Positions 5,287 through 61,548 of a DNA stretch of 64,000 nucleotides are shown here, piece after piece. The stretch covers positions 1,129,695-1,193,694 of the forward strand of contig CAWDDX010000007.1 in assembly GCA_963801195.1 (NCBI GenBank), read 5' to 3'. Position 1 is the stretch's first letter. Each line of letters starts with the position of its first letter. A program made the translations under genes and the position numbers. Below the pieces are notes generated by a model. That model was not told the origin of the DNA. It made no database searches and saw only the letters and a program-made list of their open reading frames with translations. Source of the DNA: an uncultured Gammaproteobacteria bacterium (GTDB taxonomy: Bacteria; Pseudomonadota; Gammaproteobacteria; Xanthomonadales; SZUA-36).

Positions 5287-5733
5287 TAGGAGCGGATGCC
5301 AATTCAATAGTCACCTCCGGTCGGGACCTTTGCCAAACCGGTATTTCGTGACCCCTGCGGAGGCACCTGCGGGTCAGATGTGTCAATTCAAAACCATCGT
5401 GGCCGGAAAACTGCGGCTGTAAGTGGTCCGGTTAGGGGAAGTCTTCAAGGCAGTCCGACTTGCTTCGCGCAGCTTGCAACACGCCGATATCGTTTGCAAA
5501 TATTGAATACTGTCAATTCTGACAGATGATGAACTACCTAGGATGATGTATAAATTTTACGTCAGAGTGAGAATTTCATTCTTCGACAGGGAAGTTACAA
5601 AGATAGTTTTTAAAACAAGGTAAGGGGATTACCACATGAGAGACTTACTCAACATCCGGGTATCGGATGTATTGGCTGCGCCATTCGCCACAAGCCGGGC
5701 GGTCATCAATTTCATCAATTCCAGCAGTCCGTC

Positions 5734-42879: not shown

Positions 42880-43661
42880 ACACTTGGACGAAATGCATAT
42901 CCGCGGTCGTTTTTTGCCTGTTCGTGGCAAGCACGGATGTCCAGGCCGGCACGGGTCTGGATGACCTCGGTGACCTGCCGCCCGGGGAACAGTATCGTCA
43001 ACTCAGCCTGATCATACTCATCTCAAGGGGGGCTGACCCGGCGCTGATGGACGCCATCGCTCCACGCGATGCCGTTGTTCAGGGCAGGGCGGCCTCAAAT
43101 CTCGGTCCCGATGACTACAAGACACCGTTGATTCGAATCGTCGACCAACAATCCATGTTATCAGGAGCAGCTTTTCTGCTGCGTTATGCGCAGGAATCCC
43201 GGGATGACATTGAGGCCAGCCTGGCGGCCATCAATGCCAGTAATCCCGTACTGATCAGCATGGTCGATATGAACGCGATCACCGAGGATGCGATTATCAT
43301 ACGCAATGCGATCGCAGATGCGATCAGTTACTCGGAACTTGCAGATGACGGTGATATCGCGGGCTATTTACAGGATTACCGCGCCCAGACCATACATATC
43401 AGAAACGTCATGGAATATGAGCTTTTCGACGAGGAACTGCAGCGATTGACCGATGAGGCCATCGCCTCGGTCGGTGGCAAACTCGATGCCTATCAACGCA
43501 TGTTTGATGAAGAGGTGGGCGCCAAAGAACTCGACAGGCAATTTGACGCGGCAAAATATATCTTCAATCGAACTAAAAAGTTCGATGAAGAAGCGGGCTT
43601 ACTGACCGAGGAAATTATGAAAAACGTAATTAACTCGCAAAGTAATCCCAATGTTCCCTGA
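42876..43661 (+). CDS. hypothetical secreted protein
   Basis: 261 aa. Signal peptide (FCLFVASTDVQA). 4-nt overlap with the preceding gene. Confidence 0.5.
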   Translation: MNTWTKCISAVVFCLFVASTDVQAGTGLDDLGDLPPGEQYRQLSLIILISRGADPALMDAIAPRDAVVQGRAASNLGPDDYKTPLIRIVDQQSMLSGAAFLLRYAQESRDDIEASLAAINASNPVLISMVDMNAITEDAIIIRNAIADAISYSELADDGDIAGYLQDYRAQTIHIRNVMEYELFDEELQRLTDEAIASVGGKLDAYQRMFDEEVGAKELDRQFDAAKYIFNRTKKFDEEAGLLTEEIMKNVINSQSNPNVP

Positions 43662-45126: not shown

Positions 45127-48100
45127 TCATTGGCAGCTGGTTACAGCAATGGCCTGTTCAGAAACTTCACCGTTGCTTAAATCACCTTCATTAACAATGA
45201 GGTCTTCACTGCAATCGGTAGTGACCTGGAAGCCAAGCGTTGCTGTACCACCGGGTAAGGTCTGCACAAGTAATTCATCACCTTCGACCGGTGCGGTTCC
45301 CACACCATTATAGAAGTAGGTGTCACCGATCGTTCCGCCTGCATTTTCTGCACCAACTGTTCCACCATCTGCGGTGTTATCCATTTGACCATAGACGTAG
45401 TGAATTAAACCCTCGGCACAACCGCCGTCATTCCCGATCCAGACTTGCATTGTGACTGTGTCAGTGCTGCCATAAAGAGGCACTGCTTCCCATTCATACG
45501 CCGTAGCCGTGCCACAACCTAAATTGAGTACGGCGAGATACATTTCGCCACCGGCGCTCTGATTCAGGTCACGCCAGAATGGTGCAAGAATGTTATTTGG
45601 CGTTAAGGGGTTCGGCAAATCCTGGTTGTTATAGCTACTGAACACGCCACTGGCGCTGCCAGCTTCAATCGTTCCATTCACTGAAAACAGTGTATCCGTG
45701 TAGGTGACACCATTGTAGGTAAACGCCGGTACGTTATACCAATACCCACCGTCGTCGCAGTCTCCATTGCAACCTGAACTCAAGGGAGGAACACCCAGAG
45801 AAGCCAGCGGGAGATAACCGCCGGGAACAGATCCACCAGGATCCTGAGAAACATCCATTTCACCTGCAAACAATTCACCCGTCCAGGACAGGCTGTTGCT
45901 GGCTGCGTCGTACGACCAGGGTGATGAGGTTAAACCGTTATCGACGACTTCGGTTTCAGAACCGGACACAAAGCTCGTACCAGCAGGCAATACATCAGTC
46001 ACGGTGACAGGACCGTTCAGGTTTTCATTGGTCACCACCAACTCGTAGCTGAGCGTGTCGCCAGACGTTGCGTTGGAAGCATCCACGGTCTTGGTAAACA
46101 CGCCTTCATTGGTGGCCGCGACCGGTCGTACCGCAATGGGACTGCGTACCGAATAATTACCGTCATCATCGGCCCAGGTCAATGAACCAAATGCCCATTC
46201 TCCCATGACTGTATCGCCGGTGATATTAAAGGTAACCTCATAAGTCATCGAATCACCCTTTCTCAACTTGAAGCTGGATGGTGATACAGACACATCAATG
46301 CCAGGTGGTGCGTCTACGGAAACCGTGAAATTTTTGCTGCCATTGTTGTTGTAAACGGCGGTCACGGTACGTGTGATGGTCTGGGTTTCTACCAAGGAGC
46401 CGATGCCGATGGAGGCCAGATTCAGATCGCTTGGATCAAAGGAGAATCCTTCGGAGTCAAGAAAATCACAAGATTCAGAGTCTACTATATCGGCTTGTGC
46501 AGGTTCACCGCAGAGCGCTGCAAGGTAGTCAAGGAAGCCGACGTCATAGGCGAGACCCGGATCAACGGCATTGCTGGGTAATATCTCACCCGCGCCAACG
46601 TCGAATGGGTCAGCAGGGTCATCTCCAAATGACTTCTTCAGCCCATTGCGAGCAGTGGTCATCAATGCAGACCGGGCAATCGCTGGTGTCCAGTCAGGGT
46701 GTGCCTGCTTGAGCAGAGCAAACGAGCCGGCCACGTGCGGGCTGGCCATGGAAGTACCATTGTAATTGGCAAACTCTTCACCGCCGGCACCCCAGGGGGA
46801 GACAGCCGCCAGAATTTTCACACCGGGTGCGCTGAGATCGGGCTTGATTACATCGGGCATGCCATTATTGGGTCCGCGTGAGGAGAAACTGGCGATACGA
46901 TTGGAAGCAGGAACAAGACCAACCGTAACGTTCACACCGGTCTCTCCCGCCATGGTCAATCCATCATCAGTTGATACCATCACACCAGGAATGCTGGTGC
47001 CTGGGGCGGACATAGTTGTGACTGGCCTGTCATCGGTATAAACAATGATAGCAACAGCACCCGCCGCAGCCGCATTGTTGTACTTGATCGTGAAGGAACA
47101 AACTCCACGGCTGACAAGGGCAATTTTCCCAGGCATTGGATCGATGGGATCACAGGCGAGAATATCAGATGCGTTTTGAACATCGGCCGTAATGGGACCG
47201 GTGTCTTGGAATGATACTTCACCGGCACCTTCGACACCGTCATAACTTCCCGCGATACTGCCCGGGCTATTTACCTGGACATTGGCGTAAAAAACGCCAT
47301 CGTCATTGGTTGCACCGGTAGCGGTCAGCCACGGCACACCGGATGGGGTGCCCACGGTGCCCGCGTCAGGGCCGGAGTTACCGGCTGAAGCGGCTACCCA
47401 AACACCTGCATCTGCGGCAAAAAGGAATGCTAGGTCGTCTGGCGAGGCGAAAGAATTGCTGGAACCGCCGATCGAGAAGTTGATGACATCGACGCCGTCA
47501 GCCACTGCCTGGTCGATAGCGGCGGCGCTGTCTGAAGAAGCGCAACCGTCATCGGTGGTGACATTTGGATTTGGGCCGTCCCAGCAGACCTTGTAGGTCG
47601 CCAGACGTGCACGTGGCGCCACGCCACTGATGTTGCCCTGGAATACACCATTGATATAGGCGGGTACACCGTTGTTGCCGCCGGCAGTGGAAGCCGTATG
47701 ATCACCATGCCCATCCGCGTCGCGACCTGACTGGAATTCCCAGGGGGCGGTATCCGCGCCGTCGCCACCACATGGGTTACTGGCATCGGGACCGGATGAG
47801 AAACCCGAATTGTAACAACGCGCTGCAAGTAACTTGTTGTTACAGGAGAATGGCGCGTCAGCGGGGTTTGCAGCGGTATTGCCAAAATCACAACCGCTCG
47901 GGGTAAAATCGTCGATCGGGCCATATGCGATATCAGGACCCTTGTTGCCCTTCTTGGGAGTTTTAACGTCGGCGAAGCTGGGGTGCTCCGGCCAGATACC
48001 GGTATCGACAATGCCGATAACAACATCTTCACCGGTCAGACCTTTTGACCACGCCTGTCCGCCTTCGGTGAGGCCGATATAGGTCGGGCTGGTATCCGTT

Positions 48101-48546
48101 TGAAGTTTGCGGATTTCATCTTTCCAGACATGTACAACGTCAGGATTTTTCTTCAGCTTCTCAGCATCCGCTGCCGTCATACGTGCCGCAAAGCCGTTCA
48201 AGGCATAGCGGTAGTTGTAAACTTTTTCAGCACCGACACTGCGGACCACCTGGTTCTGCTTCTTTTCCAGGAAAGACGCATACTTCTTTACGGCAGCACT
48301 GTTGGGATTTAGTTTTTTACCCTTGCCAGGTTTGGTTGCCTGGTATCCCTTGATATCGCCATCATAGGCAATGACCGGGCTGGCCTGCATCTGGACGATA
48401 TAAATGTTGGATGTGGCCGACTGACTTGCTGCTGGTCTTTCCAGCAAATTACCGTTCTCACGACTGACTTTCAAATCAGCCTGAGCTGTCGCGAGACCGG
48501 TCAGACCGATCACAGTCGACAACAATAGTTTCTTAGCTAGTGACAT
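45127..48546 (-). CDS. secreted S8 subtilisin-family serine protease with PA domain and C-terminal repeat domains
   Basis: Catalytic D (GIVDTGIW), H (HGDHTAST) and S (GTSMASPHVAG). PA-domain insert (GKIALVSRGVCSF). DUF11-like segment (TLSYELVVTNENLNGPVTVTDVLPAGTSFVSGS). The signal peptide starts at MSLAKKLLL; the track ORF extends to 48597. Confidence 0.9.
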   Translation of the reverse strand: MSLAKKLLLSTVIGLTGLATAQADLKVSRENGNLLERPAASQSATSNIYIVQMQASPVIAYDGDIKGYQATKPGKGKKLNPNSAAVKKYASFLEKKQNQVVRSVGAEKVYNYRYALNGFAARMTAADAEKLKKNPDVVHVWKDEIRKLQTDTSPTYIGLTEGGQAWSKGLTGEDVVIGIVDTGIWPEHPSFADVKTPKKGNKGPDIAYGPIDDFTPSGCDFGNTAANPADAPFSCNNKLLAARCYNSGFSSGPDASNPCGGDGADTAPWEFQSGRDADGHGDHTASTAGGNNGVPAYINGVFQGNISGVAPRARLATYKVCWDGPNPNVTTDDGCASSDSAAAIDQAVADGVDVINFSIGGSSNSFASPDDLAFLFAADAGVWVAASAGNSGPDAGTVGTPSGVPWLTATGATNDDGVFYANVQVNSPGSIAGSYDGVEGAGEVSFQDTGPITADVQNASDILACDPIDPMPGKIALVSRGVCSFTIKYNNAAAAGAVAIIVYTDDRPVTTMSAPGTSIPGVMVSTDDGLTMAGETGVNVTVGLVPASNRIASFSSRGPNNGMPDVIKPDLSAPGVKILAAVSPWGAGGEEFANYNGTSMASPHVAGSFALLKQAHPDWTPAIARSALMTTARNGLKKSFGDDPADPFDVGAGEILPSNAVDPGLAYDVGFLDYLAALCGEPAQADIVDSESCDFLDSEGFSFDPSDLNLASIGIGSLVETQTITRTVTAVYNNNGSKNFTVSVDAPPGIDVSVSPSSFKLRKGDSMTYEVTFNITGDTVMGEWAFGSLTWADDDGNYSVRSPIAVRPVAATNEGVFTKTVDASNATSGDTLSYELVVTNENLNGPVTVTDVLPAGTSFVSGSETEVVDNGLTSSPWSYDAASNSLSWTGELFAGEMDVSQDPGGSVPGGYLPLASLGVPPLSSGCNGDCDDGGYWYNVPAFTYNGVTYTDTLFSVNGTIEAGSASGVFSSYNNQDLPNPLTPNNILAPFWRDLNQSAGGEMYLAVLNLGCGTATAYEWEAVPLYGSTDTVTMQVWIGNDGGCAEGLIHYVYGQMDNTADGGTVGAENAGGTIGDTYFYNGVGTAPVEGDELLVQTLPGGTATLGFQVTTDCSEDLIVNEGDLSNGEVSEQAIAVTSCQ

Positions 48547-49147
48547 AGTATATATGCTCCTTTTAAGACGACGAAGAGACTGATTGTCTTTATCCAATTT
48601 ATATGGAAAAACATTCAGTTATTAATGATTTTCATTAGGTTTTGGGTCACCAATTTCACAACTCGGTTTAAAGCAACCCTTACGCCAAACGAAATAGTCA
48701 ACAGAATTCAATCGATGGATGGCAAAGTCAAAACGTCAGACCAGAAACCATGGATTGAAATTGTTTTACTCCCTTTTCATGAATGAAAATATTCACGGCG
48801 AAATTTAAGGCTAGACCTAAAACACCACCATGTCAATTTGAAAGCAAGGACCAGCTGGATCAAAATTGTTGGTTCAAAAGATAAACAGACAACTAACTCT
48901 TTTTTTTAGTCATCTTTATTAGTCAGTTGCAGAAATTTTCTTACAATTTTTCTAGACTACTGAGATTATCGACTTCCGTGGAAGAAAATTCGGACCCAAG
49001 AACCAAATCAAACTCAATTGGCTGGTTTTCCAGAAATATAATCTGGCAAACCGTCCTGGTATCGCAAACGAGACCATCAATCTACGTTGCAGAGATCGCT
49101 TTCATTCAGGAAGTGTCAGAATCATTGAAAACGATGTTGCTCACAAA

Positions 49148-49460: not shown

Positions 49461-51050
49461 CTAACCGCCATTGTCTTTATCCAGCTTTGTTCTATCAGGA
49501 GAAATTTCATCGTCGGGCGCCGGCGGTTCCGCAGCCGCGCCGGTTGAACCGTTTACACCCTGGGCGTTTAAAAGGTCCTGGATATTGAGCGTGCCCTCAG
49601 GCGGCGGGTTGCTGCCTGCTTTTCCTTCCGCGGCTTCGCCGTTTTCCGTGGCTTCTCCTGTCAGGTATTCAAGCGCGTTCTGGGAAGCACCGGCCGTACT
49701 TTCTTCTCCGGTTGGTTCAGACAGGGCAGGGGATGTTTCGACGGGTGGGGTGCTTGACGCGGGCTTCCGGGCCGTTTCAGTCTGTTGTCCGTCCCGCGTC
49801 TGTCCTTCGTCCTGCTCGCCCTTCTGTCCGTCGATTTTGCTCTCTGCCTGCTGGTCGCCCTGGTCACCGGCTTGATCACCGTCCTGTGCCATCTCCTGAC
49901 CCTTGGCCTGAGCTGTCTCCTGTCCTTCGGTCTGGTTGTCGGATTCACCTTCGGCTTGGCCGTCACTCTTTGCACCGGCCTGACCTGCATTTTGACCAGC
50001 TTGTTGACCAGCAGCCAGAGGTTTACCATTCGTTGCGGAAGATGAACTGCTGTTTTCACCCGCACTCCCGGATTGAGCGGCAGTTCCTTTCAGGAATTCC
50101 AGAGCGTTTTGAGCGGTGCCGGCCTCGCTGGTTGACGTATCCGCAGCACTATTTGAAGCCCCACCGGCCTCACCGCTGCTTTGTTCCGCACCAGCTTGCC
50201 GGCCCGTCTGGGCAGGGGACTGCCCCCGGTCACCGGAAAGTGCAGATGTTCCCGCCTGTTCGCCATTACCGGCAGGGGGCCCGGCATTTTCTCCCGCGGC
50301 CCCGTCGCCGCCTTTGCCAAGCCCTTGCAGAAACTCCATTGCATTTTGTGACACGCCTGAAGTGCTTTTGGCGCTTGGATCATTTGCACCTGGCGAATAG
50401 GTGCCGGCAGTATCGGCCTGGCCCGAATTTTCGTCCTGGCTGTTCCGCTGACCCTGGCTACCTTCGTTCTCCTGTCCGCTTTCGCCGTCGGGCATCAAAC
50501 CGCCGCCGGTATTGTTGCCGGTACCATTTTCTGTACCCTTGGTCGCGCGGGATCCGGCCGAGTTTTCGTAAATCTGGGCCTCACGCTGGTTGTAGCTGTC
50601 GACCAGTTCGCCCCAGGCTTCCAACTCCTGCTTTTGCAGCGAAGGGTCCTTGCGGGCGGCTACGCTGGGCACATAGGGATATTCGGCGTCTTCATCGCCG
50701 GGTTGCCACGGGTCGCCCTGCACGATGATTTCCCGCAGTTCATTGCGCAGATGCTTTTGTGATTCTTCCGGCAGTTTTTCAAGCTTGTGCAGACCTGACT
50801 CGGGTTTGAATGCGGTTTCCGGGATGATACCCCGTTGCTGCTTGGCATCCTTCAGTTCCATGAACTGGCGGTAGTTGTCCTCGTTAATTTCGACCTCCTG
50901 GCTGGAAGGTGCTTCCGCTTCTTCCACCGCGGCTTTTTCGGCCGCGTCAGCAGGGGATGGTGCCGGTTGCGCTTCCTGCGCAAAAACTGACGGTGCAAAT
51001 TGCAGCACAAGGATGTTCAAAATGGCCGTCAGCGCTATCGGTTTTTTCAT
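49461..51050 (-). CDS. secreted acidic low-complexity protein with three QNA[LM]E[FY]L motifs
   Basis: 529 aa. Signal peptide ending SVFAQEA. A Gly/Gln/Glu/Ala-rich body. Starts 18 nt downstream of the kinase gene. Confidence 0.7.
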   Translation of the reverse strand: MKKPIALTAILNILVLQFAPSVFAQEAQPAPSPADAAEKAAVEEAEAPSSQEVEINEDNYRQFMELKDAKQQRGIIPETAFKPESGLHKLEKLPEESQKHLRNELREIIVQGDPWQPGDEDAEYPYVPSVAARKDPSLQKQELEAWGELVDSYNQREAQIYENSAGSRATKGTENGTGNNTGGGLMPDGESGQENEGSQGQRNSQDENSGQADTAGTYSPGANDPSAKSTSGVSQNAMEFLQGLGKGGDGAAGENAGPPAGNGEQAGTSALSGDRGQSPAQTGRQAGAEQSSGEAGGASNSAADTSTSEAGTAQNALEFLKGTAAQSGSAGENSSSSSATNGKPLAAGQQAGQNAGQAGAKSDGQAEGESDNQTEGQETAQAKGQEMAQDGDQAGDQGDQQAESKIDGQKGEQDEGQTRDGQQTETARKPASSTPPVETSPALSEPTGEESTAGASQNALEYLTGEATENGEAAEGKAGSNPPPEGTLNIQDLLNAQGVNGSTGAAAEPPAPDDEISPDRTKLDKDNGG

Positions 51051-51068: not shown

Positions 51069-53504
51069 TTACTCGTTGATTTCACGTGCCACCCGGAAAC
51101 CGGTAAAGTCATTACGATCGCCATTTTTCAGGTTGAAGCGCGCCGGCAGCCTGATTTCTTTTGAGCCGGTGATCCATGAACCCCCACGGGTGATGTGTGA
51201 ACTGCAGATACCACGCCCCCAGGCGCTGCCGTCCACGGGCGCATCGACGTAGGACAGGTTCATGCAATCGGCGGTCCATTCCGAGACATTGCCGATGGTG
51301 TCGTACAAACCAAACGCGTTGGCCCTGAATGTACCCACCGGGGTGGTGCCCAATGCCGTTTGGTCACGGCACTGTTCGTGCTGCCACTTGAAACCGGTTT
51401 CAGCCCCGGCGACGTTGCCGTACTCGCAGACGATCGCGGGGTGTCCGCCGGGCCAATCGCTTTCCTGACCGGCCCTTGCGACGTATTCCCACTCGCTCTC
51501 ACTTGGCAGACGGTAGCTTTGACCGGTTTTCTCACTCAGCCAGTGTACGTATTCCTCAGCGTCATTCCACGAGACCATGATCACCGGCCGGCTGCCCCTT
51601 CCCCAGCCATTGTCACCCGGCTGTGCAGTACAGCCTTTATCGTTGAAACACCTGTCCCACTCGGCCATCGTTATCTCGTAAACACTGACGGCGAACGGTT
51701 TGCCGATGGTCACCAGCCTGCGGGGTTTTTCCATGCCGAGCGCCAGCGGTGAGTCCTCCGCCGATCCCTGCCAGAAGGCAGCCGAAGGTATCACCATCAT
51801 CGTGGGGCAGTCACTGCAATCCTTGAATGTCTTGCCCGGGCGCAGGGTCAGGTCATCGATATGCTGCAGTGCGGAGGCGATATTCACGCCCTTGGGAAAA
51901 GCGTCGATGTAGGCCTGGAAGGCCTCCTTGTTATTTAGCTTCAACGCGGTCTGGAAAGCCATGTCGTCTTCGGACTGGTCCTTGAGCAGGCGGCGTATAC
52001 GTGTCGCTTCTTCGATGTGCAGTCCGGCGGGCCATTCGCTGATGTAGCGGTCGAACGACTTCACCGTACGTTCACTGTTTGCGTTTTCCCAGGCCAGGTT
52101 GTCCAGTCTTTCGCGTTCCAGCCTTTCCCTTTCCTTTTTGGCCTCAGCTTGTTGGATGGCCTCGATACGCTGCAGCGCCTCGGCCTGGTGAATGCCGTCG
52201 GGGAAGACCTCGAGGTAGTCTTCATAGGCGGGTACGCGGTCCTCGGCAGACAGTGTTTTCCAGCTGTTTTCGTCCAGTATGTCCAGTTGTGTTTCGGCCT
52301 GGTCGCGGTAGATGGATTCGGGGAAATCGCTGATGAAACGCCGGTAGCCGAGCACCGTATCGGCTTTCAGTGCGCCTTGCCAGCGCTCCAGTTCCTGCGA
52401 TGATGGCTCCCGTGCGCGTTCCGTCGGTGCCACCGACGGCGATGACTCATCTGGTCCCGGCGTGCCGGCGGTCGTTGTTGGCTGCGGTGATTCACCGGTT
52501 AGCAGGTATATCCCCACGGCGGTCATGGTCAGCAGGAAAACGCCCAGAAGTATCATGGGCAACCATTCCCTGCCTTCCTTTGCATACGCATCCGTTTTCC
52601 CGGCAACGACCACCGAGCGGTGCCAGTCGAGGCTTTTAAACGATTTTTTCCATATCCCGACATCCCTGGGGCGCTCAAACCATGGCACTTTCAAGCCCAG
52701 GTCCACCGCGTCTGTCAATCCGCCATACAGACCGGTGGGCGCGAGTTCGGAAAATGCCGTCAATGGATCTGTTTCACCGATCGACAGCGCTTCCTGACGT
52801 ATCACTGCCGGGGTCGGGATCTTGCCGGTCACACAGCGGTACAGCGTGGCTGACAGGCCGTAAATATCGGTCCATGGACCAATCGGATCATCCGCATCCG
52901 ATTGCTCGGGAGCGGCATATCCTTCGCTGCCCAGTCTCGGTGTTTTCCCGGACGCTGCAGCCACACCGAAATCCAGCAATACGGGATCGCCTTGCTCCAT
53001 CATGTAGATGTTGCCGGGTTTGATATCCTGGTGAACCACACCCGCTTTGTGCATGTATTCGAGCGCGTCCATCAGCGGCAGCATCAGGGATTTTGCTTCT
53101 TCTCGATTGAAGGCGCCGTGGGATTCGATCAGCTGATGCAGTGCCTGTCCCTTGTAATAGGGCATCAGGAAATAGGCCGTACCATTGGCCTCAAAGTATC
53201 TTAAAACCTTGACAATATTGGGGTGATCGAGTGCGGCAACGATACGTGCTTCATGCAAAAAAAGTTTCAGACCCTGTGCAAAGGCCGGCGACGCTGCCGG
53301 GTCATTCGGAATGACTTTGCCGTCCTCGCCCCTGGTTACCAGTTTGGCGGGCAGGTACTCCTTGAGCGCAAACCGTGTGCCGATCGCAGGGTCGGTCACC
53401 ATGTAGGTGATACCGGTCGCGCCAACACCGAGGATGGCATTGATCTGCAAGTCGCCGATATGGGATCCGGGCTGAAGCCCTGATGACTGCACGGTCATGC
53501 CCAT
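51069..53504 (-). CDS. transmembrane Ser/Thr protein kinase with periplasmic repeats and C-terminal FGE/SUMF1-like domain
   Basis: Kinase motifs LGVGATGITY, ALKEY, HQDIKPGN, DFG, APE. One TM helix (MILLGVFLLTMTAVGIYLL). Four ~25-aa repeats. FGE-sulfatase pattern (RLPSESEWEYVARAG, GLYDTIGNVSEWT, RGGSW). Confidence 0.85.
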   Translation of the reverse strand: MGMTVQSSGLQPGSHIGDLQINAILGVGATGITYMVTDPAIGTRFALKEYLPAKLVTRGEDGKVIPNDPAASPAFAQGLKLFLHEARIVAALDHPNIVKVLRYFEANGTAYFLMPYYKGQALHQLIESHGAFNREEAKSLMLPLMDALEYMHKAGVVHQDIKPGNIYMMEQGDPVLLDFGVAAASGKTPRLGSEGYAAPEQSDADDPIGPWTDIYGLSATLYRCVTGKIPTPAVIRQEALSIGETDPLTAFSELAPTGLYGGLTDAVDLGLKVPWFERPRDVGIWKKSFKSLDWHRSVVVAGKTDAYAKEGREWLPMILLGVFLLTMTAVGIYLLTGESPQPTTTAGTPGPDESSPSVAPTERAREPSSQELERWQGALKADTVLGYRRFISDFPESIYRDQAETQLDILDENSWKTLSAEDRVPAYEDYLEVFPDGIHQAEALQRIEAIQQAEAKKERERLERERLDNLAWENANSERTVKSFDRYISEWPAGLHIEEATRIRRLLKDQSEDDMAFQTALKLNNKEAFQAYIDAFPKGVNIASALQHIDDLTLRPGKTFKDCSDCPTMMVIPSAAFWQGSAEDSPLALGMEKPRRLVTIGKPFAVSVYEITMAEWDRCFNDKGCTAQPGDNGWGRGSRPVIMVSWNDAEEYVHWLSEKTGQSYRLPSESEWEYVARAGQESDWPGGHPAIVCEYGNVAGAETGFKWQHEQCRDQTALGTTPVGTFRANAFGLYDTIGNVSEWTADCMNLSYVDAPVDGSAWGRGICSSHITRGGSWITGSKEIRLPARFNLKNGDRNDFTGFRVAREINE

Positions 53505-55018
53505 TCCGCCTCTTGTTTGACCACGTGGATCGTCACTTGCACATCACCCAGGAATATTTCGTCATCGGTTCCAATATACATGATCTCACCGGGCAGACAG
53601 GGCACATCACCGATGAAGCTGCCGTTTCGGGAGCCCAGGTCGGAAAAGGTAATCCATTCGCCCTCGGATTGAATGCGGGCATGGCGGCGGCTGATGGCCG
53701 CGTGTTCAATGGCAATATCCGCGTCACCCCTGCCAATCACGATATCTATCTGATCGATATCGATAAAACAGAAGCGCTTGAAAGACCTGTCGGAATCGAG
53801 CAACCCCTCGACGATGAGAACACCGTTGCATCCGTCGGGCCGTGTGCCCCACGCCGGCAACTCCAGGTCATAGACAGGCGCCGAGCGGGGCTTGAACGCG
53901 CTGCTTTCAGACCCGGTTTCCAAGGGCGCCGTCACCGGTTCGTCGGACGCCGGCTGAACGGTTGCGGCGGGTTCGGTCGAGGTCGTCGGCGGTGAGGGCG
54001 TGGTGCTGAGCCGGAATAAGAAAATACCTTTCCAGATGAAAACTCCGAGGACGATGAGTCCGAGCAGCGGCAGCCAGGCAGGAACATTGTGCCAGAACGG
54101 TGATGGTTCCTTTGTATTGCTTAGCGTTACCTGGCTTGCTGGCGTAATGGGGGCATCCCGTGTCGGGGTCCCGGTCGGTTCGTTGACAGTTGGTTCAGTT
54201 ACAGAGGGTTCTTCAAGGGCTCTCTCCTGTTTAGCCTCCACGACCGGTTCATGCGACTTTTCAGCTTCAAGCGGCGTATCTTTGTCGCTTGCGGTTTTGG
54301 CCGCTGATGATCCTGTGCCTGCAACGGGTTGCTCGCAGATGGCTTTGGGCACACTGATCTGCAGTACGTCAAGGTCACGGAGCAGGTCTTCTCCAAACAG
54401 GACTGAAGCGATTTTGTCACCATCCAGGCTTTGCGGTCCGCGGGCCAGGCTGGCGCCTGCGAGGTAACCGCAACTATCGAGAATCGCTCCGGTGACGTAG
54501 GGCAGGGGTGTTTCGGCTGAAATTGAAAGCTGACCGGTTTGTCCATCACGCAATACTTTCACCGGCAGCTTGAGGGGTTGCGCGCCTTTTGCGATGTACT
54601 CCGCCGGCGGGAACGCTTCCAGGTGCAGTGTTCCGCCAGTCTCCAGCGCATTGGCGGACAGCTTGATGCCCGGCCGCTTGAGACCCTTGACCGACAGGAA
54701 TGCCATATCGCCGGTGCCGGTATCGTCAACGATCTGGGCGGGACGGCCATTGCTGAGAATGTCGGCGCCGCCATCGAGCACGATCATTTCGCCGTCTTCA
54801 GCGGCAAATTCTGCAGGTACCATCACGATCCCGTCGTCCGAAACCACGATACCCGTGGTCGGCTTGACCAGCGTTTTCGAAACCAGTTTGAGGACCAGGA
54901 CCACCGATGGAGAAATCTGGACGGTTTGCTGAGCCGTGGCGGCCTGGGTCTGGGCCAGGGCGATGAGCAACAGCACAAGCCGGCTCAGAAACCCTTCACT
55001 CAAACGCCCGTCAAGCAT
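53495..55018 (-). CDS. bitopic protein: periplasmic trypsin-like (probably inactive) domain, TM helix, cytoplasmic FHA domain
   Basis: The signal peptide starts at MLDGRL. TM helix WLPLLGLIVLGVFIWKGIFLF. C-terminal FHA signature GRGDADIAIEHAAISRRHARI...GSRNGSFI. The track ORF extends to 55063. Confidence 0.7.
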   Translation of the reverse strand: MLDGRLSEGFLSRLVLLLIALAQTQAATAQQTVQISPSVVLVLKLVSKTLVKPTTGIVVSDDGIVMVPAEFAAEDGEMIVLDGGADILSNGRPAQIVDDTGTGDMAFLSVKGLKRPGIKLSANALETGGTLHLEAFPPAEYIAKGAQPLKLPVKVLRDGQTGQLSISAETPLPYVTGAILDSCGYLAGASLARGPQSLDGDKIASVLFGEDLLRDLDVLQISVPKAICEQPVAGTGSSAAKTASDKDTPLEAEKSHEPVVEAKQERALEEPSVTEPTVNEPTGTPTRDAPITPASQVTLSNTKEPSPFWHNVPAWLPLLGLIVLGVFIWKGIFLFRLSTTPSPPTTSTEPAATVQPASDEPVTAPLETGSESSAFKPRSAPVYDLELPAWGTRPDGCNGVLIVEGLLDSDRSFKRFCFIDIDQIDIVIGRGDADIAIEHAAISRRHARIQSEGEWITFSDLGSRNGSFIGDVPCLPGEIMYIGTDDEIFLGDVQVTIHVVKQEAEWA

Positions 55019-55023
55019 CTGTA

Positions 55024-55770
55024 TCAAGGTGAATAAAGCCGGTTGATCAGGTTGTCCAGGCAATATTGCCCGGAGCGATTGAGCGTGTTTTCTTCCCTGC
55101 CCTGGATCAGGTTTTGCAGGAATACCAGTATGGCCGCCATCACCAAAGCCAATAACGTAGTGCTGAAAGCGACACCGAGGCGTTCCGTGACCTGGTACAG
55201 CATTTCAGGACTCTCGACGTTGGCCCGGTCACCTGCGTAATTCAGCGCCAGCATGATGCCGATGACGGTGCCGATAAAACCGAGCGAAGGAATCAGCCAG
55301 GTGATGTAGCGGATCATGTTATAACGCAGATCAAGCTCGTGCAGAAAGAGCTCGAGACTCGAGTTCAACAGTGCATTGGTCTGATCCACTGACTGGCCCA
55401 GATTGAAATTTAGCACACAGCGCTCGATCAAACGTGGCAGAAAGCAGATGTTCCTGTATTTGCTGCTGTGAACTTTCTGATAGATAGGCGTCAGGTCGTC
55501 ACCGGGCCGAAGTACGGTTTCATCATCGAGCGGCAGGTAGTTGCGGTCAAACTGGCTTTCGTCAAGACGACCGGCGCGCCAGCGCAGGGTCAATTCACCC
55601 AGACCGAAGAAGAAAGCGACCCAAATGATGTTTTGCACCGTGAGCGGCCATGAGGCCCGCTTGATATCCAGCATGATGGCGGCCGCGCTTGGCGGAAGTA
55701 TTCTCGCCAGCAGGGCGATCACCAGGACGGACGTAACCAGGCTGATTAATAATGTGATTTGTCGAGTCAT
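55024..55770 (-). CDS. MotA/TolQ/ExbB-family proton-channel protein
   Basis: 248 aa. The family core is IPSLGFIGTVIGIMLAL...GVAFSTTLLALVMAAILVFL. Confidence 0.8.
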   Translation of the reverse strand: MTRQITLLISLVTSVLVIALLARILPPSAAAIMLDIKRASWPLTVQNIIWVAFFFGLGELTLRWRAGRLDESQFDRNYLPLDDETVLRPGDDLTPIYQKVHSSKYRNICFLPRLIERCVLNFNLGQSVDQTNALLNSSLELFLHELDLRYNMIRYITWLIPSLGFIGTVIGIMLALNYAGDRANVESPEMLYQVTERLGVAFSTTLLALVMAAILVFLQNLIQGREENTLNRSGQYCLDNLINRLYSP

Positions 55771-55791: not shown

Positions 55792-56226
55792 TTAAGGATT
55801 GACGGACCGGTCATCTTCGATTTTACCGGTTAAGGGGTTTCGCCGGGGTTTGTTCATTAAAGGCCCGTGGTCCGGATTTCCCGAGGATGGCCTGGCGGTG
55901 GTTTTTCCGTACCTGAGATGAAAGTGTCTCGCCTCGAGCCGAGTATTCGTTCGCTTGCCGAAGATCGCTGTGAGGGTCTCCAGCGGCACTTCAACGTCGC
56001 CGAAGCGGATACGGTCGCCGATACACAAGGTGATCTTTTTCACACGGATCCAGCGTTCGTTGCGATTTAAATAGGTGCCATTGCTGGAACCCGTGTCATG
56101 TATCGTCACGAGACCGTCGCCGGCTACTTCGAGACGGGCGTGCAGACGGGAAAGCGTCGCGTGGTCGAGGACGAGGTCGCAGGCAGGGTCCCGTCCGCAT
56201 GTCTTGATTTCCGTTCCAGTACTCAC
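55792..56226 (-). CDS. stand-alone FHA-domain protein
   Basis: 144 aa. CGRDPACDLVLDHATLSRLHARL...GSSNGTYLN (canonical G-R, S-x-x-H, N-G residues) and a basic C-terminal tail. Confidence 0.85.
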   Translation of the reverse strand: MSTGTEIKTCGRDPACDLVLDHATLSRLHARLEVAGDGLVTIHDTGSSNGTYLNRNERWIRVKKITLCIGDRIRFGDVEVPLETLTAIFGKRTNTRLEARHFHLRYGKTTARPSSGNPDHGPLMNKPRRNPLTGKIEDDRSVNP

Positions 56227-56365: not shown

Positions 56366-57304
56366 TCATTGTGCCAGTGCCAGGAAGCCGCCGGAGTTGG
56401 CGCGCGCCAGGTTCTCCATGAATTCGACTGTTCCCTTGTATTTGAAATAGTCGCCAATGGTCACCGCATGGATTTCAACACCCCTGGTATTTGACATGAC
56501 GATATCCTGGATCAGCGCCCTGGGCGGCAGACCGCCGTTGTAGGCCGGGTTGGGCAGGCCGTCACTGAGCAGGATTACCGCTTCCGCAGGTGTCTTCAGG
56601 GCCTCGGCAAACGCATCCCGGAGCGAAGACGAGCCTTCGAATTTACCGGCCAACTGACGTGCGAAACGCTGGGCCTGCGCACGGTTTGCGGGGTTCATCG
56701 CAACCAGTCCTCCATTTTCCGGAAAACGATGATAACGGGGGCCTGAATCCAGTTGCTGAAAACCGAGAATACCAAACTCGTATCCCGGTTTGAGTGAGTC
56801 GAGTGCACGCATCACGGTTTTGGCAACCAATGCCTCGTGGTCAGCGAGATACTTGTTCATATCGACGAGCAGCAGAATGCGGGTCTTGTCGGTTTTCAAA
56901 CCGAGGAAACGAAACGTCACCAGGTTGCTGCCCTGCTTTTCTTCCGTCTCTACGGGGCTCGGCGGGGGAGGTGGCGGCTTGTCGTTGCGCGCCTGCAGTT
57001 TGGCGCGGACGGCCTCCAGTTCACTCGACATGATCTCCTGTTCCGCCTGCAGTTCCATCTCGCGGCTCTGCGCCTTACTGAGCGCATCGTTCATGCTGAC
57101 AATACCCTTCTCGGTATCGTTCATGATCGCTTCGGTCTCCCCTTTCAACGATTCGATATATTCGAGGTGCCCTTCCAGCCTGACTTCTTTTTGGTAATCC
57201 GGCATCAGGATAATCGTGATGATGATGAACGCGCCCATTGCCGAGGCGAACAGGTCGATGGCCGAGAGCGAAAAAACACCCATGTGCCGCAGGCGTGATT
57301 TCAT
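56366..57304 (-). CDS. MotB/ExbD-like TM anchor + coiled coil + vWA domain (degenerate MIDAS)
   Basis: 312 aa. TM helix with Asp (FSLSAIDLFASAMGAFIIITIIL), a heptad-rich segment, a poly-Pro linker, and a vWA core (ILLLVDMNKY, LLSDGLPN). Paralog of the adjacent gene. Confidence 0.7.
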   Translation of the reverse strand: MKSRLRHMGVFSLSAIDLFASAMGAFIIITIILMPDYQKEVRLEGHLEYIESLKGETEAIMNDTEKGIVSMNDALSKAQSREMELQAEQEIMSSELEAVRAKLQARNDKPPPPPPSPVETEEKQGSNLVTFRFLGLKTDKTRILLLVDMNKYLADHEALVAKTVMRALDSLKPGYEFGILGFQQLDSGPRYHRFPENGGLVAMNPANRAQAQRFARQLAGKFEGSSSLRDAFAEALKTPAEAVILLSDGLPNPAYNGGLPPRALIQDIVMSNTRGVEIHAVTIGDYFKYKGTVEFMENLARANSGGFLALAQ

Positions 57305-58230
57305 TTGGAAACACCCACGAAATCGCCGCCGTTCAGGCGGGCGAGCGTTTGCATGAAAAGAACCAGGTTACGGTTGTGCGTGTAGTCGCCAATCGCCACG
57401 GTGTGAATTTCAGTCCGCCGGAACTGGTTGAGCTGGGTGATGTTATCGATAATGAAACCGGGCGGGCTGTTGGGTTCGCCGTCGCTCATAAGGATAATGG
57501 CGCTGGCCGGGTATTCCAACGCTGCCTGTAGGGCAAAATGCGTCGGTGTCGAACCGACGAATTTACGCACCAGCGACTGTGTAAAGTCTGCCGCCAGCCC
57601 CAGGTTTTCCCTGGTGGCGGGAAGCAGGCGGTTACCGGTGGGGAAGCTCCAAAGCACCGGTTGCGGGTTACCGTGATAGCCGAGAATGGCGAACTGGTTG
57701 GATTCATCCAGGGGTTTGAGAATGGCGAGCACAGAGTCGATCATTTCCCGTTCGTACTGCAGCATACTACCTGACATGTCCACGACGATGACGAAGGACT
57801 TGGCCTCGGTGGCGAGACCCAGGATTGAGAATTCGACACCGTGGGTCAGAGCCTTGGGTTCCGGTTCGGGATTGATGACCTCGACCGGTTCGGTGACCGG
57901 CGTTGGCAGCGCGGCCAACTGGTTCTTGACGTCCATCAACTGCTTGCGCAGGCGCGAGACCTGCTGTTCCTGCCCCTGGTTGGTCTCGGTCAGTTCATCC
58001 AGTTCACTTTGCAGTTCCTGCTGGCGGGCTTTCAGGTCTTCCAACTCCCCGGCAGCCAGGCGGCGCTGCTCCATGATCGCCTGTGTCCTGGCAAAGGAGT
58101 CATCGGGGCCGGCATGACGGTAATAGGGGAATAGCAGCATTACCAGTAGAATAAACGCGCCCAGGGCCGAGGCGAACAAGTCGATGGCCGAGGTCGAAAA
58201 AACAGCGGTGTCTCTATCCGGGATTCTCAA
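57301..58230 (-). CDS. MotB/ExbD-like TM anchor + coiled coil + vWA domain (intact MIDAS-like DxSxS)
   Basis: 309 aa. TM helix with Asp (FSTSAIDLFASALGAFILLVMLL), a coiled-coil-like segment, a Pro-rich linker, and a vWA core (FVIVVDMSGSM, LMSDGEPN). 4-nt overlap with its paralog. Confidence 0.7.
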   Translation of the reverse strand: MRIPDRDTAVFSTSAIDLFASALGAFILLVMLLFPYYRHAGPDDSFARTQAIMEQRRLAAGELEDLKARQQELQSELDELTETNQGQEQQVSRLRKQLMDVKNQLAALPTPVTEPVEVINPEPEPKALTHGVEFSILGLATEAKSFVIVVDMSGSMLQYEREMIDSVLAILKPLDESNQFAILGYHGNPQPVLWSFPTGNRLLPATRENLGLAADFTQSLVRKFVGSTPTHFALQAALEYPASAIILMSDGEPNSPPGFIIDNITQLNQFRRTEIHTVAIGDYTHNRNLVLFMQTLARLNGGDFVGVSK

Positions 58231-58443: not shown

Positions 58444-61400
58444 ATGGAATTATATTTGATCAACCGCCGACTGGTAAAATTGCTGCTGACCCTGGCCATC
58501 CTGGTAAGCGGAGCGGCCATTCCCGCGTTATCGGGCGCGGTGGCCGCAGAACAGTCAAAGATGCAGGAATATTTTGTTCAGCAGGCGGTCAATGAGGACC
58601 TGTTAATAACGATCAACGCTTTTGAAGCCGAATTCGAGTCCAGAGTATCGGGTCCAAACGGCGAGCTTTTACTCTTGTCCGGCATCACCGGCAGCCGTAT
58701 CGTGCCGGTTTTTCAATACATCTATGCGCCTAAAAACAATCGTCAGATCGATATAGAAGTCACTTCCGGTGTGAACACAGGACGCACCGAGTTTGGTATC
58801 GAGCTGACCCGCTTGAAACCCTGGGACTCAAGGAGCAATTCCATCTCCCGGGCGTACAAATTGCTGTCGTTTGGAACGGAGCTTGATGGCAATGCAAGCC
58901 AGGTGAACTGGACGATAAAGATCGACAGCCTGACGAATGCCGGAAAGCTGTTTGAGCAATATGGTATGCAGGAAATGCGATTGTGGGCCAATTACCTGGC
59001 CGCGCACCACGTCCTGTTTTATCTGCACGACCACAGTATCGCCTACAGCATGACCCGTGACATCCTGTCCGAACTCAAGGGTACACGTCTGCAGAAAATA
59101 GAGCTCGCGACCCTGCAACTTCAAGGCATGGCGCTTATGGGTCTGAGGAAATCGGGTTCATTGAACATAAGCAAGGGAGATTCCGATCCGGTGCAGGCAG
59201 TGCTTTCACGTACGGCTGAACTCGCGCGATCGATGGGTTATGAGTATGAACTCGCGCGCGCGCTGTATGACAGCGGCCTGGAGTACGCCGGCCAGTCGTC
59301 CAATACGGACGCGCTCGATCAGTTCCAGCAGGCCGTGCAGATCGCTGACGGGGTCGGCAGTACAGAAATGGCGAAAGCGATTCGCGAAAGTATCGTTCAG
59401 GTACATACCGTCCTCGGAGACGCACCGGCCAGCAGCGAGGTGCTCCAGGAGATTGAATCCCAACTGGTCGAGGATGGCGGAGGTGACGAACTTGCTCTCA
59501 ATCTGTTGGCGCAGGCGCGCCTGTTGATTGGAAAGTACCGTTATCGCGAGGCCCTGAAGGTGTTGTCCGGTGCGCTTGCTTATCAAAACAACAGCGCCAT
59601 CCGCCGGCAAATCTATTTTGAACTGGCGAAAATTCTTTATGAAACCGGGCGCATGGACGATTCGCTGAAATACCTCCAGCTGGCCGGAATCAACCCCGAT
59701 TCAAGCCGGAATCGACGTGTAAATCCGGTGGTCGATGTCGGCGAAGGACTGCAAATCCTGGCCAATATCTACCGTTACAAGGGTGAATTTGAGCGCATGC
59801 AGACCACGCGGAGCGCGCAGGGACAGTACCGGCCGGCCACGGATCAATACCTGTATGACCAGGGCATGGACGCCCTCGCTACGCCCGGCGACCACCGGCA
59901 GCGCGCCGCATCGCTCTTGCGCCGGAGCTTTGAAGTTGCCGGGCCGGCCGGCCATGATGATATTGAACATCTGGCACAGCTGCACTATTGCGTATTGACA
60001 GACCCTGCAGATGGTTTGTGTTCAAATGCGGCACTCAACAGGGCTCATGAATGGCTTATTGCCGCGGCTGTGCCGAGGGTCACCTCGGAAGCCATGTATG
60101 TGTGGGTGCAACTGCTGTTACGTGATGGGAGGCGCGGTGAAGCCAACGCTGTTATGGAGGGGCTGATCGATGATATTCACGTGATGCGCTTTTCGCTGCC
60201 GGGGGTACTCGGCTCCTGGTACTGGGAGCGGCATGAACAGATTTTTGAAACCTGGCTCGGGATGCTCATCAGCGAGTCACGACAACGCGGCAGTACAGAA
60301 GGATCGGCGTCGTTGCTGGCCCTGAGCAAAATGAGGTTTATTGAAGGTACAACCGAGTCCTATGCCGGTAAGGGGGGGGAAGCTGACTCGTTGCGGACAC
60401 TCCTGGCACAACGCGCCGATCCGGGAGCGGGGCAGTCACGTCTGACCCTGAACGAAAAAATCATGCCTGGCCTGGACAAGCTGCGCGCAGATTTCCACGA
60501 ACGCTTTGCGTTCCTGTCAGACGCGGGTCTGAAAAAATACCTGCGTAGCCTGGCGGAAGACGAAACGGTAATGACCTATCATCTTGGCCCGCGCCTGGCA
60601 CAGGTGTGGATTGCAAACAAAAACGGGGTTCAGCGACGGGATATTGCCGATCCCGCGAAAGTGTATCAGGGTATTCAAACGGACCGGCTAAGCCTGGCGG
60701 ATATCGGACTGGCCGCTTTTGATGACAAAATGGATGAGCTGGGAAAACAACTGTTGCAACCGGTTGCCGATCTCCTGACAGACACGATCTATGCAATTCC
60801 GGCTGGCCCGCTGTTGGGGGTTCCGCTGGATGCACTGCGGTTCAATGGACATTACCTGGTGGAACGTCATAACGTGGTGAACCTGCTTTCCTTTCCGCAA
60901 AACGTCAACCCGGCCAGCAGTCTGCAGACGGGATTATTGCAAAGTGTCTTCCTCGCCGGCAACCCAATGGATTACGCAGGCGATTACGCGACCCGGCTTG
61001 AAACCTCGGCCGAGATCAGTGCGGTGGCGGACCTGTTTGTCGGTCCGGGACTGCAAATTGTGCAGGGGGTCGCCCTGTTACCCGATGAATTCCAGTCCGA
61101 CCACTTCAGCCAGTCAAACCTGGTGCACTTGTCGATGCCGGGCGTTATCAACCTCGAACATCCCGACCAATCGGGACTTGAGCTTTCCGAGAGTGAATAT
61201 GAGCCGGGGCGTGCCATACTGCTGTCCCCGGATATCCGTTCGCAGAACCTGGGTGCCGGGCTGGTATTCCTGAGTTCACTGAGACTGAGCGGAATTCCGC
61301 GCTCAGGTTTCAGCAGTCAACCCGGTCTCGTCGCGGACTTCATGGCGGCGGGAGCAGAGTCGGTCATCGTCAATTTATGGGCCGGTGACGCCGGCTCGAA

Positions 61401-61548
61401 TGTGACTTTCATCACCAGCTTCTACCGCTCGCTAAAGGCATCGGCCAACACCGCCGCGGCCCTGCGAAACTCAAGACTTGAATATTTGGAAAGTGGTCGT
61501 GATGACGGTAACTACGACTGGGCCGGGTACCAGCTTTATATCAAGTAA
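58444..61548 (+). CDS. secreted TPR-like repeat protein with C-terminal CHAT (caspase-like) domain, catalytic dyad apparently lost
   Basis: 1034 aa. Signal peptide (ALSGAVAAEQ) and a helical-repeat middle region. C-terminal CHAT pattern: LVHLSMPG...LVFLSSLRLSG...AGAESVIVNLWA...WAGYQLY. Confidence 0.7.
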   Translation: MELYLINRRLVKLLLTLAILVSGAAIPALSGAVAAEQSKMQEYFVQQAVNEDLLITINAFEAEFESRVSGPNGELLLLSGITGSRIVPVFQYIYAPKNNRQIDIEVTSGVNTGRTEFGIELTRLKPWDSRSNSISRAYKLLSFGTELDGNASQVNWTIKIDSLTNAGKLFEQYGMQEMRLWANYLAAHHVLFYLHDHSIAYSMTRDILSELKGTRLQKIELATLQLQGMALMGLRKSGSLNISKGDSDPVQAVLSRTAELARSMGYEYELARALYDSGLEYAGQSSNTDALDQFQQAVQIADGVGSTEMAKAIRESIVQVHTVLGDAPASSEVLQEIESQLVEDGGGDELALNLLAQARLLIGKYRYREALKVLSGALAYQNNSAIRRQIYFELAKILYETGRMDDSLKYLQLAGINPDSSRNRRVNPVVDVGEGLQILANIYRYKGEFERMQTTRSAQGQYRPATDQYLYDQGMDALATPGDHRQRAASLLRRSFEVAGPAGHDDIEHLAQLHYCVLTDPADGLCSNAALNRAHEWLIAAAVPRVTSEAMYVWVQLLLRDGRRGEANAVMEGLIDDIHVMRFSLPGVLGSWYWERHEQIFETWLGMLISESRQRGSTEGSASLLALSKMRFIEGTTESYAGKGGEADSLRTLLAQRADPGAGQSRLTLNEKIMPGLDKLRADFHERFAFLSDAGLKKYLRSLAEDETVMTYHLGPRLAQVWIANKNGVQRRDIADPAKVYQGIQTDRLSLADIGLAAFDDKMDELGKQLLQPVADLLTDTIYAIPAGPLLGVPLDALRFNGHYLVERHNVVNLLSFPQNVNPASSLQTGLLQSVFLAGNPMDYAGDYATRLETSAEISAVADLFVGPGLQIVQGVALLPDEFQSDHFSQSNLVHLSMPGVINLEHPDQSGLELSESEYEPGRAILLSPDIRSQNLGAGLVFLSSLRLSGIPRSGFSSQPGLVADFMAAGAESVIVNLWAGDAGSNVTFITSFYRSLKASANTAAALRNSRLEYLESGRDDGNYDWAGYQLYIK

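Follow-up and report, generated by a model that had tools for sequence, protein, structure and literature searches.

Paired vWA proteins with an invariant Asp helix as candidate B-type subunits of a MotA/ExbB-like motor in a gammaproteobacterial phospho-signalling gene cluster

Ion-driven motors of the 5:2 type power flagella, Ton/Tol transport, gliding, type IX secretion and Zorya defence, and to our knowledge no motor that has been tested uses a vWA protein as its axle. We analyzed 64,000 nucleotides from an uncultured gammaproteobacterium (assembly GCA_963801195.1, contig CAWDDX010000007.1, positions 1,129,695 to 1,193,694; this whole stretch is referred to as the window), in which two adjacent genes encode paralogous vWA proteins, here vWA1 and vWA2, and a nearby gene encodes a MotA/ExbB/TolQ-like protein. 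The closest described proteins are the trans-pore-helix (TPH) vWA proteins, which are encoded with tolQ-like genes but without tolR (Mol Biol Evol 2025; PMC12204202, section 8, Fig. 4c,d). They carry a TolR/ExbD-like helix with a conserved Asp, form mostly heterologous pairs and are found in Proteobacteria, and in AlphaFold 3 models their Asp pair lies within the Thr ring of the pentamer (PMC12204202). The description is computational only, with Idiomarina loihiensis as the reference (PMC12204202). It was the only account of vWA proteins of this kind returned by a full-text literature search.

The window pair resembles the TPH-vWA proteins in architecture and synteny, the I. loihiensis reference being compared by description only. 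Each window protein has an N-terminal transmembrane (TM) helix, a linker and a vWA domain, a conserved Asp and neither an SHLS motif nor a His in the helix. The pair is heterologous, a MotA-like gene is linked to it, and the window contains no tolR, exbD or motB gene. By these features the pair is a member of the predicted TPH-vWA/tolQ-like kind. We propose that vWA1 and vWA2 are B-type (MotB/ExbD/TolR-like) subunits of a 5:2-type ion-driven motor whose A subunit would be the 248-aa MotA-like protein. The model in PMC12204202 is the same, and we count it as independent support.

The two genes lie on the minus strand, vWA1 (309 aa, TTG start) at 57301-58230 and vWA2 (312 aa) at 56366-57304. Their open reading frames (ORFs) share a 4-nt ATGA overlap and the proteins are 33% identical (BLASTP, E 8e-41), which bears out the overlapping paralogous pair of the first-pass annotation of this DNA. 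Pfam VWA_3 matched vWA1 at 2.8e-10 and vWA2 weakly at 1.5e-3. AlphaFold2 single-chain models, built on alignments of 84 (vWA1) and 78 (vWA2) diverse relatives, reached mean predicted local distance difference test (pLDDT) values of 87.0 and 90.2, respectively, with about 97 inside the vWA domains. Both proteins begin with a short basic tail followed by a single helix with an identically placed Asp, as had been annotated. The segment VFSxSAIDLFASAxGAFI is near-identical in the two and contains Asp17 in each. The TM helix was assigned to residues 10-35 of both, at 58126-58203 for vWA1 (VFSTSAIDLFASALGAFILLVMLLFP), where it is the most conserved segment of the family, and by alignment at 57200-57277 for vWA2. 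Asp17 is encoded by GAC at 58180-58182 in vWA1 and at 57254-57256 in vWA2, both codons having been checked.

The models show how the helix is joined to the vWA domain. In vWA1 the TM helix spans residues 12-39, with Asp17 6 residues into it, and is followed by a long helix (residues 45-107; 57910-58098), a disordered linker and the vWA domain from residue 133. The vWA2 model has one unbroken helix over residues 10-107, which joins the TM helix directly to the stalk (residues 36-107; 56984-57199), and a vWA domain that begins at residue 131. The stalk helices of both paralogs thus terminate at residue 107. Hydrophobic residues occupy 0.61 (vWA1) and 0.60 (vWA2) of the a/d positions, compared with 0.09 and 0.13 elsewhere in the stalks, a pattern reached by a fraction of 0.001 of 2000 shuffles for vWA1 and by 0 of 2000 for vWA2. 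The heptad periodicity noted earlier therefore held, while the stalk length of about 90 residues given with it did not, the modelled stalks being about 65-70 residues long. The Pro-rich linker of vWA1 covers residues 108-132 (PTPVTEPVEVINPEPEP; 57835-57909), with pLDDT below 50 at 113-132; a Pro-rich linker is present in vWA2 as well.

The vWA fold predicted beyond the linker was recovered by alignment and AlphaFold2 in both proteins (vWA1 residues 133-309, 57304-57834; vWA2 residues 131-312, 56369-56914), and Pfam and, for vWA1, Foldseek agree. The Foldseek neighbours of the vWA1 model are vWA domains of the metal ion-dependent adhesion site (MIDAS) type, namely those of ITIH1, Cav alpha2delta, the anthrax toxin receptor and integrin I domains. 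In vWA1 the MIDAS is intact, with D151-x-S153-x-S155 at 57766-57780 plus T228 and D250 (alignment and codons), and reads DMSGS...TPT...SDG. The vWA2 counterpart is degenerate. It reads DMNKY...SSL...SDG, with DMNKY in place of DxSxS at 56849-56863 and no Thr. The SDG(E/L)PN segment is retained in both, so that this part of the earlier annotation stands as written, and MIDAS status is complementary within the pair.

The N-terminal helix was examined across the family by a profile search of 1.84 billion cluster representatives, which returned 2893 relatives at E<=1e-3, of which 115 reached E<=1e-30. The Asp was counted among 50%-identity cluster representatives of the best 150 relatives, each scored from the downstream G-A-F anchor in order to avoid circularity, and was found in all 113 representatives that have the helix. 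In the 84-sequence alignment, with members down to 24% identity to vWA1, D17 and G24 are the sole invariant columns of the N-terminal half. The transmembrane Asp is therefore conserved among homologs. The helix core is also the best conserved part of these proteins, with an entropy of 0.78 bits, whereas the vWA domain has 2.32 and the stalk 2.88. Since the core is best conserved and its Asp invariant, we read the helix as a functional element rather than a plain anchor. The division into intact and degenerate MIDAS also extends over the family: among 98 aligned sequences (96 representatives and the two of the window), it is intact in 76 and degenerate in 22.

The charge distribution bears on topology. 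Over the family, the tail of up to 8 residues has a mean K+R of 2.26 and a mean D+E of 0.96, and the 15 residues past the helix have a K+R of 1.84 and a D+E of 2.41. This bias fits an N-in/C-out orientation with the vWA domains predicted to be periplasmic, and argues against placing them in the cytoplasm.

The candidate A subunit is encoded at 55024-55770 on the minus strand. The protein matched PF01618 at 2.5e-13 (50.3 bits, cut-off 22.9), and its gene lies downstream of vWA2 with one FHA gene in between, in line with the MotA/ExbB-like neighbour that had been annotated. Among homologs that are 32-51% identical and come from distant contexts, the invariant residues are E59 in TM2, P161, G164, G167, T168 (of a GTV motif) and V169 in TM3, and T204 and T205 in TM4. 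Judging from the motif, T168, T204 and T205 would be equivalent to the Thr ring of ExbB/TolQ. A search of PDB sequences gave nothing significant, ZorA and PomA appearing at E 0.25-0.6, and the solved MotA, PomA and ZorA chains matched at E >0.2 only. We take the protein to represent a divergent subfamily because its matches to solved structures are at E 0.25-0.6. A phmmer search found no ExbD, TolR or MotB homolog in the window, the window holds no helix of the Asp17 type beyond those of vWA1 and vWA2, and the ORF list shows that the gaps between the genes of the cluster are too small for any further gene.

We then considered whether this arrangement recurs in other genomes. One genome per GTDB species was scanned, which gave 345 relatives, and 79 loci were fetched. 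Almost all are from Lysobacterales or from marine metagenome-assembled genomes (MAGs) of the Wenzhouxiangellaceae type, and they include the cultured Elongatibacter sediminis (L067). Two loci with the full cluster, L035 and L026, are labelled Nitrosopumilus sp. and Rhodothermales and are 62-65% identical to the gammaproteobacterial family; these labels look like binning errors. The gene order in the GTDB loci is a divergent CHAT gene followed by vWA1, vWA2, FHA, MotA-like, FHA-TM, kinase-FGE and a low-complexity protein. A full-length MotA-like ORF occurs in this order in 56 GTDB loci; in the remaining loci of this primary type the stretch ends early or the MotA-like copy is split. In the primary-type loci, the divergent gene beside the cluster is that for CHAT. 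Conservation within the cluster is highest for the MotA-like protein, with 72-95% identity across loci compared with 54-94% for vWA1 and 29-72% for CHAT. Two helices of the Asp17 type are present in 77 of the 79 loci.

The association extends to more distant lineages. Eleven distant contexts were collected, among them Nioella ostreopsis, a Desulfococcaceae bacterium, an alphaproteobacterial MAG and Tara and Logan assemblies. A MotA_ExbB gene lies within a few genes of the vWA gene in 8 of the 11 and directly beside it in L084, L091 and L092, so that co-occurrence with MotA/ExbB-like genes elsewhere is borne out. No ExbD or MotB Pfam domain was found in the MotA-bearing distant clusters. These contexts also carry FHA proteins, PP2C, a kinase and Trypsin-TM-FHA proteins, the last in the position of a 522-aa protein of the window. 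In relatives, a small FHA gene is always directly upstream of the MotA-like gene (the GTDB loci; L081, L082, L083 and L085).

The proposed motor can be outlined as follows. The N-terminal helices of vWA1 and vWA2 would lie side by side in the pore of a MotA-like pentamer, most likely as a vWA1/vWA2 heterodimer, giving the 5:2 stoichiometry. Asp17 of each helix would face the invariant Thr residues of the last two TM helices of the pentamer. Each Asp would take up and release the coupling ion at the Thr ring, and this cycling between protonated and deprotonated states, powered by the membrane potential, would turn the pentamer relative to the dimer. On the periplasmic side, the axle is predicted to continue as a heptad coiled coil of about 65 residues and a flexible Pro-rich linker that ends in two vWA heads. 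The vWA1 head would offer a metal-dependent MIDAS ligand site, which would be lost in the vWA2 head, and the heads could fix the axle to, or pull on, a partner in the periplasm or outer membrane. Nearby genes encode candidates for this partner, namely a conserved lipoprotein, an acidic secreted protein and a CHAT protease. If correct, a vWA axle would mean that the part of such a motor that rotates or is anchored directly carries a metal-dependent adhesion head. The first-pass annotation had arrived at a heterodimeric B subunit as well, and at the level of sequence this is supported by the invariant Asp, the N-in topology, the synteny with the MotA-like gene and the lack of a rival B-type gene in the window. 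The heterodimer is favored because 77 of 79 loci encode two helices, the ORFs overlap by ATGA, the stalks end at the same residue and the MIDAS states are complementary. Overall, we give a heterodimeric vWA1/vWA2 axle in a MotA-like pentamer about an even chance of being correct.

Several observations weigh against this proposal. The first concern the helix itself. In a hmmscan against Pfam with eight 50-residue N-terminal segments (the two of the window and six family variants), there was no match to ExbD or MotB_plug at E<=10. A helix profile of 60 sequences found no MotB, ExbD or TolR chain among PDB sequences, and its matches there are at chance level only (TM7 of insect Orco, E about 0.2). 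When hhalign was run against an ExbD/TolR alignment composed of the E. coli sequences and the exbD genes of the fetched loci, Asp fell on Asp over 7 columns, with a probability of 0.3% and an E of 0.19. The resemblance to MotB/ExbD/TolR that had been annotated is thus upheld in the position of the Asp and the spacing to a Phe, but not as significant sequence similarity. An Asp-anchored alignment with E. coli TolR, ExbD and MotB puts the Asp near the cytoplasmic end of the helix, and a Phe follows nine residues after the Asp in TolR, ExbD, MotB, vWA1 and vWA2. We regard the shared Asp/Phe spacing of these sequences as a pattern and no proof of homology.

The second group of contrary observations concerns gene content. 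Six satellite clusters (L068-L071, L073 and L079) have a vWA pair without a MotA-like gene, and the pairs of L089, L090 and L093 have none in the stretch available. All six satellite genomes also hold a MotA-bearing cluster. Because they do, it is suggested that one A subunit serves two B pairs in these genomes. The satellites keep the FHA proteins, the kinase-FGE protein and the low-complexity protein, with an extra FHA gene on the opposite strand (e.g. L069 9971-18032), and L071, L073 and L079 have a PP2C gene divergently upstream. In about 20 loci, the region 2-6 kb upstream of vWA1 holds a TonB2-type ExbB-ExbB-ExbD cluster, in which a large ExbB-like protein is encoded with a small ExbB and an ExbD (e.g. 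L052 5401-7782), so that these genomes have an ExbD close by. The cluster is absent from the window and is probably unrelated synteny. The loci with this cluster are L025, L027, L030, L037-L046, L052, L056, L059, L062, L074, L075 and L078. In L089, a cluster of MoxR (AAA_3), DUF58 and BatA type (646-5319) is located just upstream of the MotA-less pair, which may be coincidental.

Of the other explanations, the one that fares best keeps the motor and changes the pairing. Each paralog could form its own homodimeric axle, and one type of MotA-like pentamer would then serve two motors, one with two MIDAS heads and one with none. Distant lineages with a single such vWA gene have exactly one helix of this type per cluster, and there the protein must act as a homodimer. 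The near-identical TM helices of the window pair would make self-pairing possible, and the satellite pairs appear to share a MotA-like gene encoded elsewhere. However, the ATGA overlap suggests translational coupling of vWA1 and vWA2, two helices are the rule in the fetched loci, and the stalk lengths are matched. In addition, the MIDAS-less type stands beside a second vWA gene in every context examined. We therefore consider separate homodimers unlikely, and the heterodimer remains our preferred arrangement.

It is also possible that the helices are plain anchors. The vWA proteins would then be periplasmic partners of kinase/FHA signalling, with the MotA-like protein acting alone or with some other partner and the Asp serving oligomerization or another role. 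vWA/FHA/kinase/PP2C systems without a motor do exist, for example ArnA/ArnB (PMC6509490) and the Deinococcus DRA0331-0334 operon. Such anchors would agree with the vWA pairs that lack an adjacent MotA-like gene and with the lack of significant similarity to ExbD or MotB. Yet plain anchors do not stay invariant, and the conservation of this helix far exceeds that of the catalytic-type domain it would anchor. A charged Asp in a single-pass helix is costly unless shielded. Finally, the MotA-like protein would be left without a B subunit, and the lack of a syntenic tolR or exbD is highly atypical of motors of this family (PMC12204202). We judge this explanation to be somewhat less probable still than separate homodimers.

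Alternatively, the vWA proteins could sit outside the MotA-like pentamer as force transducers in the manner of TonB, TolA or the SHLS-type vWA proteins. A separate vWA family described in PMC12204202 does so beside tolQ and tolR genes. The helices of the window proteins have no His and no SHLS motif, the arrangement needs a TolR/ExbD pore dimer of which none is encoded in the window, and an invariant Asp is the hallmark of a pore helix, all of which make a peripheral position very improbable. An inverted topology, with cytoplasmic vWA domains that are phosphorylated and bound by FHA as in the cytoplasmic FHA-vWA pairs ArnA/ArnB (PMC6509490), is hardly credible given the positive-inside pattern, the signal-peptide-like N-terminus that replaces the helix in relative P0125 and the extracellular MIDAS domains that are the nearest structural matches.

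To place the proposed motor in context, the remaining genes of the cluster were assigned by Pfam and NCBIfam scans. According to the ORF list, vWA1, vWA2, FHA, MotA-like, FHA-TM, kinase-FGE and the low-complexity protein form a tight minus-strand operon, and the cluster is flanked by unrelated housekeeping-type genes. On the minus strand, the FHA gene (55792-56226) encodes a small cytoplasmic protein of 144 aa (Pfam FHA 2.4e-17). The FHA-TM gene (53495-55063) encodes the 522-aa protein, in which a TM helix lies between an exported N-terminal domain and a C-terminal FHA domain (2.9e-11). The next gene (51069-53504) encodes an 811-aa Ser/Thr kinase (Pkinase 9.7e-35) with a TM helix and an FGE-sulfatase-type domain (FGE-sulfatase 6.6e-48). 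The product of the last gene (49461-51050) is a secreted protein of 529 aa that is acidic and of low complexity, begins with a signal-peptide-like segment and contains repeats. On the plus strand, a divergent gene (58444-61548) encodes a TPR-CHAT protease of 1034 aa (CHAT 1.1e-26), also with a signal-peptide-like N-terminus.

We know of no described system in which such a motor stands in a Ser/Thr phospho-signalling envelope setting. Its companions are consistent ones: the FHA gene upstream of the MotA-like gene across distant lineages, a membrane-bound FHA protein whose exported domain is of trypsin type, a kinase, which in the window has an FGE-type periplasmic domain, and PP2C. The paired-vWA lineage adds a lipoprotein and a 261-aa protein, and the window adds the periplasmic CHAT protease. 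The FHA proteins, the kinase with its FGE-type sensor and, in relatives, PP2C probably control the assembly or activity of the motor or read its state. We suggest tentatively, with a little less confidence than in the axle itself, that a conserved Ser/Thr phospho-signalling envelope system has the motor as its mechanical core. The direction in which force or information would pass differs between two versions of this proposal. Phosphorylation could switch a 5:2 motor on and off. Alternatively, the motor could be a sensor, in which a MIDAS head meets its ligand and the FHA proteins and kinase read rotation or ion flux.

No PP2C gene was found in the window (tblastn E>0.3). In the two closest relatives, a PP2C-like gene is located about 7-9 kb upstream of vWA1 (L031 2388-3197 and L004 906-1712), and extrapolation from the L031 coordinates would put that of the window genome just past position 64000. 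The exported domain of the 522-aa protein matched the Nioella trypsin domain weakly (E about 1). It has DMAFLSV opposite DIALLRI and another sequence in place of the GNSGG serine motif, and it is possibly a trypsin-like domain without activity. The 529-aa protein has no Pfam family. Its repeats contain three (S/A)QNA(M/L)E(F/Y)L motifs (SQNAMEFLQG, AQNALEFLKG and SQNALEYLTG), and it keeps its position as the last gene in most loci with 31-79% identity. Either the vWA heads or the CHAT protease may have it as a ligand or substrate.

A second group of genes appears to belong to the paired-vWA system. On the plus strand of the window, a predicted lipoprotein of 671 aa (40864-42879; lipobox IVSG|C) is followed with a 4-nt overlap by the gene for a 261-aa protein (42876-43661). 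Neither protein has a Pfam family. Homologs of the two adjoin vWA-pair clusters in 28-29 fetched GTDB loci, MotA-less satellites included. In L091, homologs of both lie divergently upstream of the vWA pair (E 5e-98 and 2e-07). In L094, homologs of both are directly upstream in the same orientation (E 1.6e-145 and 1e-18), and L093 has a match to the lipoprotein only. The lipoprotein pair thus stands beside the vWA pair in three different arrangements. From this recurrence, the two proteins are probable extra components of the paired-vWA system, and they could provide the vWA heads with their outer partner.

Between the lipoprotein pair and the cluster, the window and its closest relatives have an insert of about 5.8 kb. 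It includes the genes for a secreted subtilase of 1156 aa with I9 inhibitor, S8, PA, fn3 and DUF11 domains (45127-48597, minus strand), a YbaK-like protein and a DUF952 protein, which are found there in the closest relatives only. Membership in the system was weighed for the S8 subtilase, YbaK-like, DUF952, FAD-oxidase and aldehyde-dehydrogenase genes and rejected, as they occur in the closest relatives only. A plasmid search with vWA1 gave no match.

The proposed motor can be compared with known systems on several levels. As in MotAB/PomAB, ExbBD and TolQR, the A subunit belongs to Pfam MotA_ExbB and the A and B genes are linked. Like MotB, ExbD and TolR, the vWA proteins are predicted to be single-pass and N-in, and their helix has one Asp close to its cytoplasmic end, nine residues before a Phe. 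Unlike these proteins, they have a periplasmic part made of a coiled coil and a vWA domain rather than an OmpA-like or ExbD/TolR-type fold, there are two different B genes, and the helices show no significant similarity. The A subunit also differs from those of the known motors in being short, at 248 aa, and in its distance from the solved chains.

The Agl-Glt gliding machinery of Myxococcus has a TolQ-like motor, AglR, with two different TolR-like subunits (AglQ/AglS). It resembles the window cluster further in having an FHA-bearing membrane protein, and NCBIfam GltG matched the small FHA protein at 1.1e-14, which is a match at the domain level only as its 54 bits are far under the family cut-off of 650. 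Its vWA adhesin is CglB (PMC9946355). In contrast to the proposal made here, CglB is a separate outer-membrane lipoprotein and not an axle, and no glt genes are present in the window cluster. The SHLS-type vWA transducers share with the window proteins a TM helix, a linker and a vWA domain beside a tolQ-like gene, but they have the SHLS/His motif and tolQ with two tolR genes, whereas the window proteins have the Asp, no His and no tolR nearby (PMC12204202).

Zorya ZorAB is likewise a MotAB-like pair that serves no flagellum and is encoded in a non-housekeeping cluster. The cytoplasmic tail of ZorA is long, ZorB has a peptidoglycan-binding domain, and the system includes ZorC/D; the window shows none of these features. 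PADLOC detected no defense system in the window, returning generic kinase matches and weak ZorA matches only. We rejected an assignment to Zorya, as the ZorA matches (1e-4) cover about 90 residues in the last two TM helices at the superfamily level and no other component was found. The combination of vWA, Ser/Thr kinase, PP2C and FHA is known from PpkA/PppA/Fha1 of type VI secretion systems, where PpkA has a periplasmic vWA domain, from the TerY-P triad and from ArnA/ArnB. Those modules differ from the window cluster in having no MotA-like protein and no Asp helix on the vWA protein.

The motor-axle idea itself is already in print as a prediction in PMC12204202. The main text of that paper mentions no kinase and no CHAT, and FHA only within the name FhaC, and the lipoprotein pair and the split between intact and degenerate MIDAS are not discussed there. 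To the TPH-vWA proteins, the window adds a clean paired example from a family with a cultured member, E. sediminis, together with figures for the invariance of the Asp and helix and the observation that kinase, FHA and PP2C genes accompany those of the proposed motor. It also provides, in the lipoprotein pair and the signalling genes, concrete candidates for ligand and regulators.

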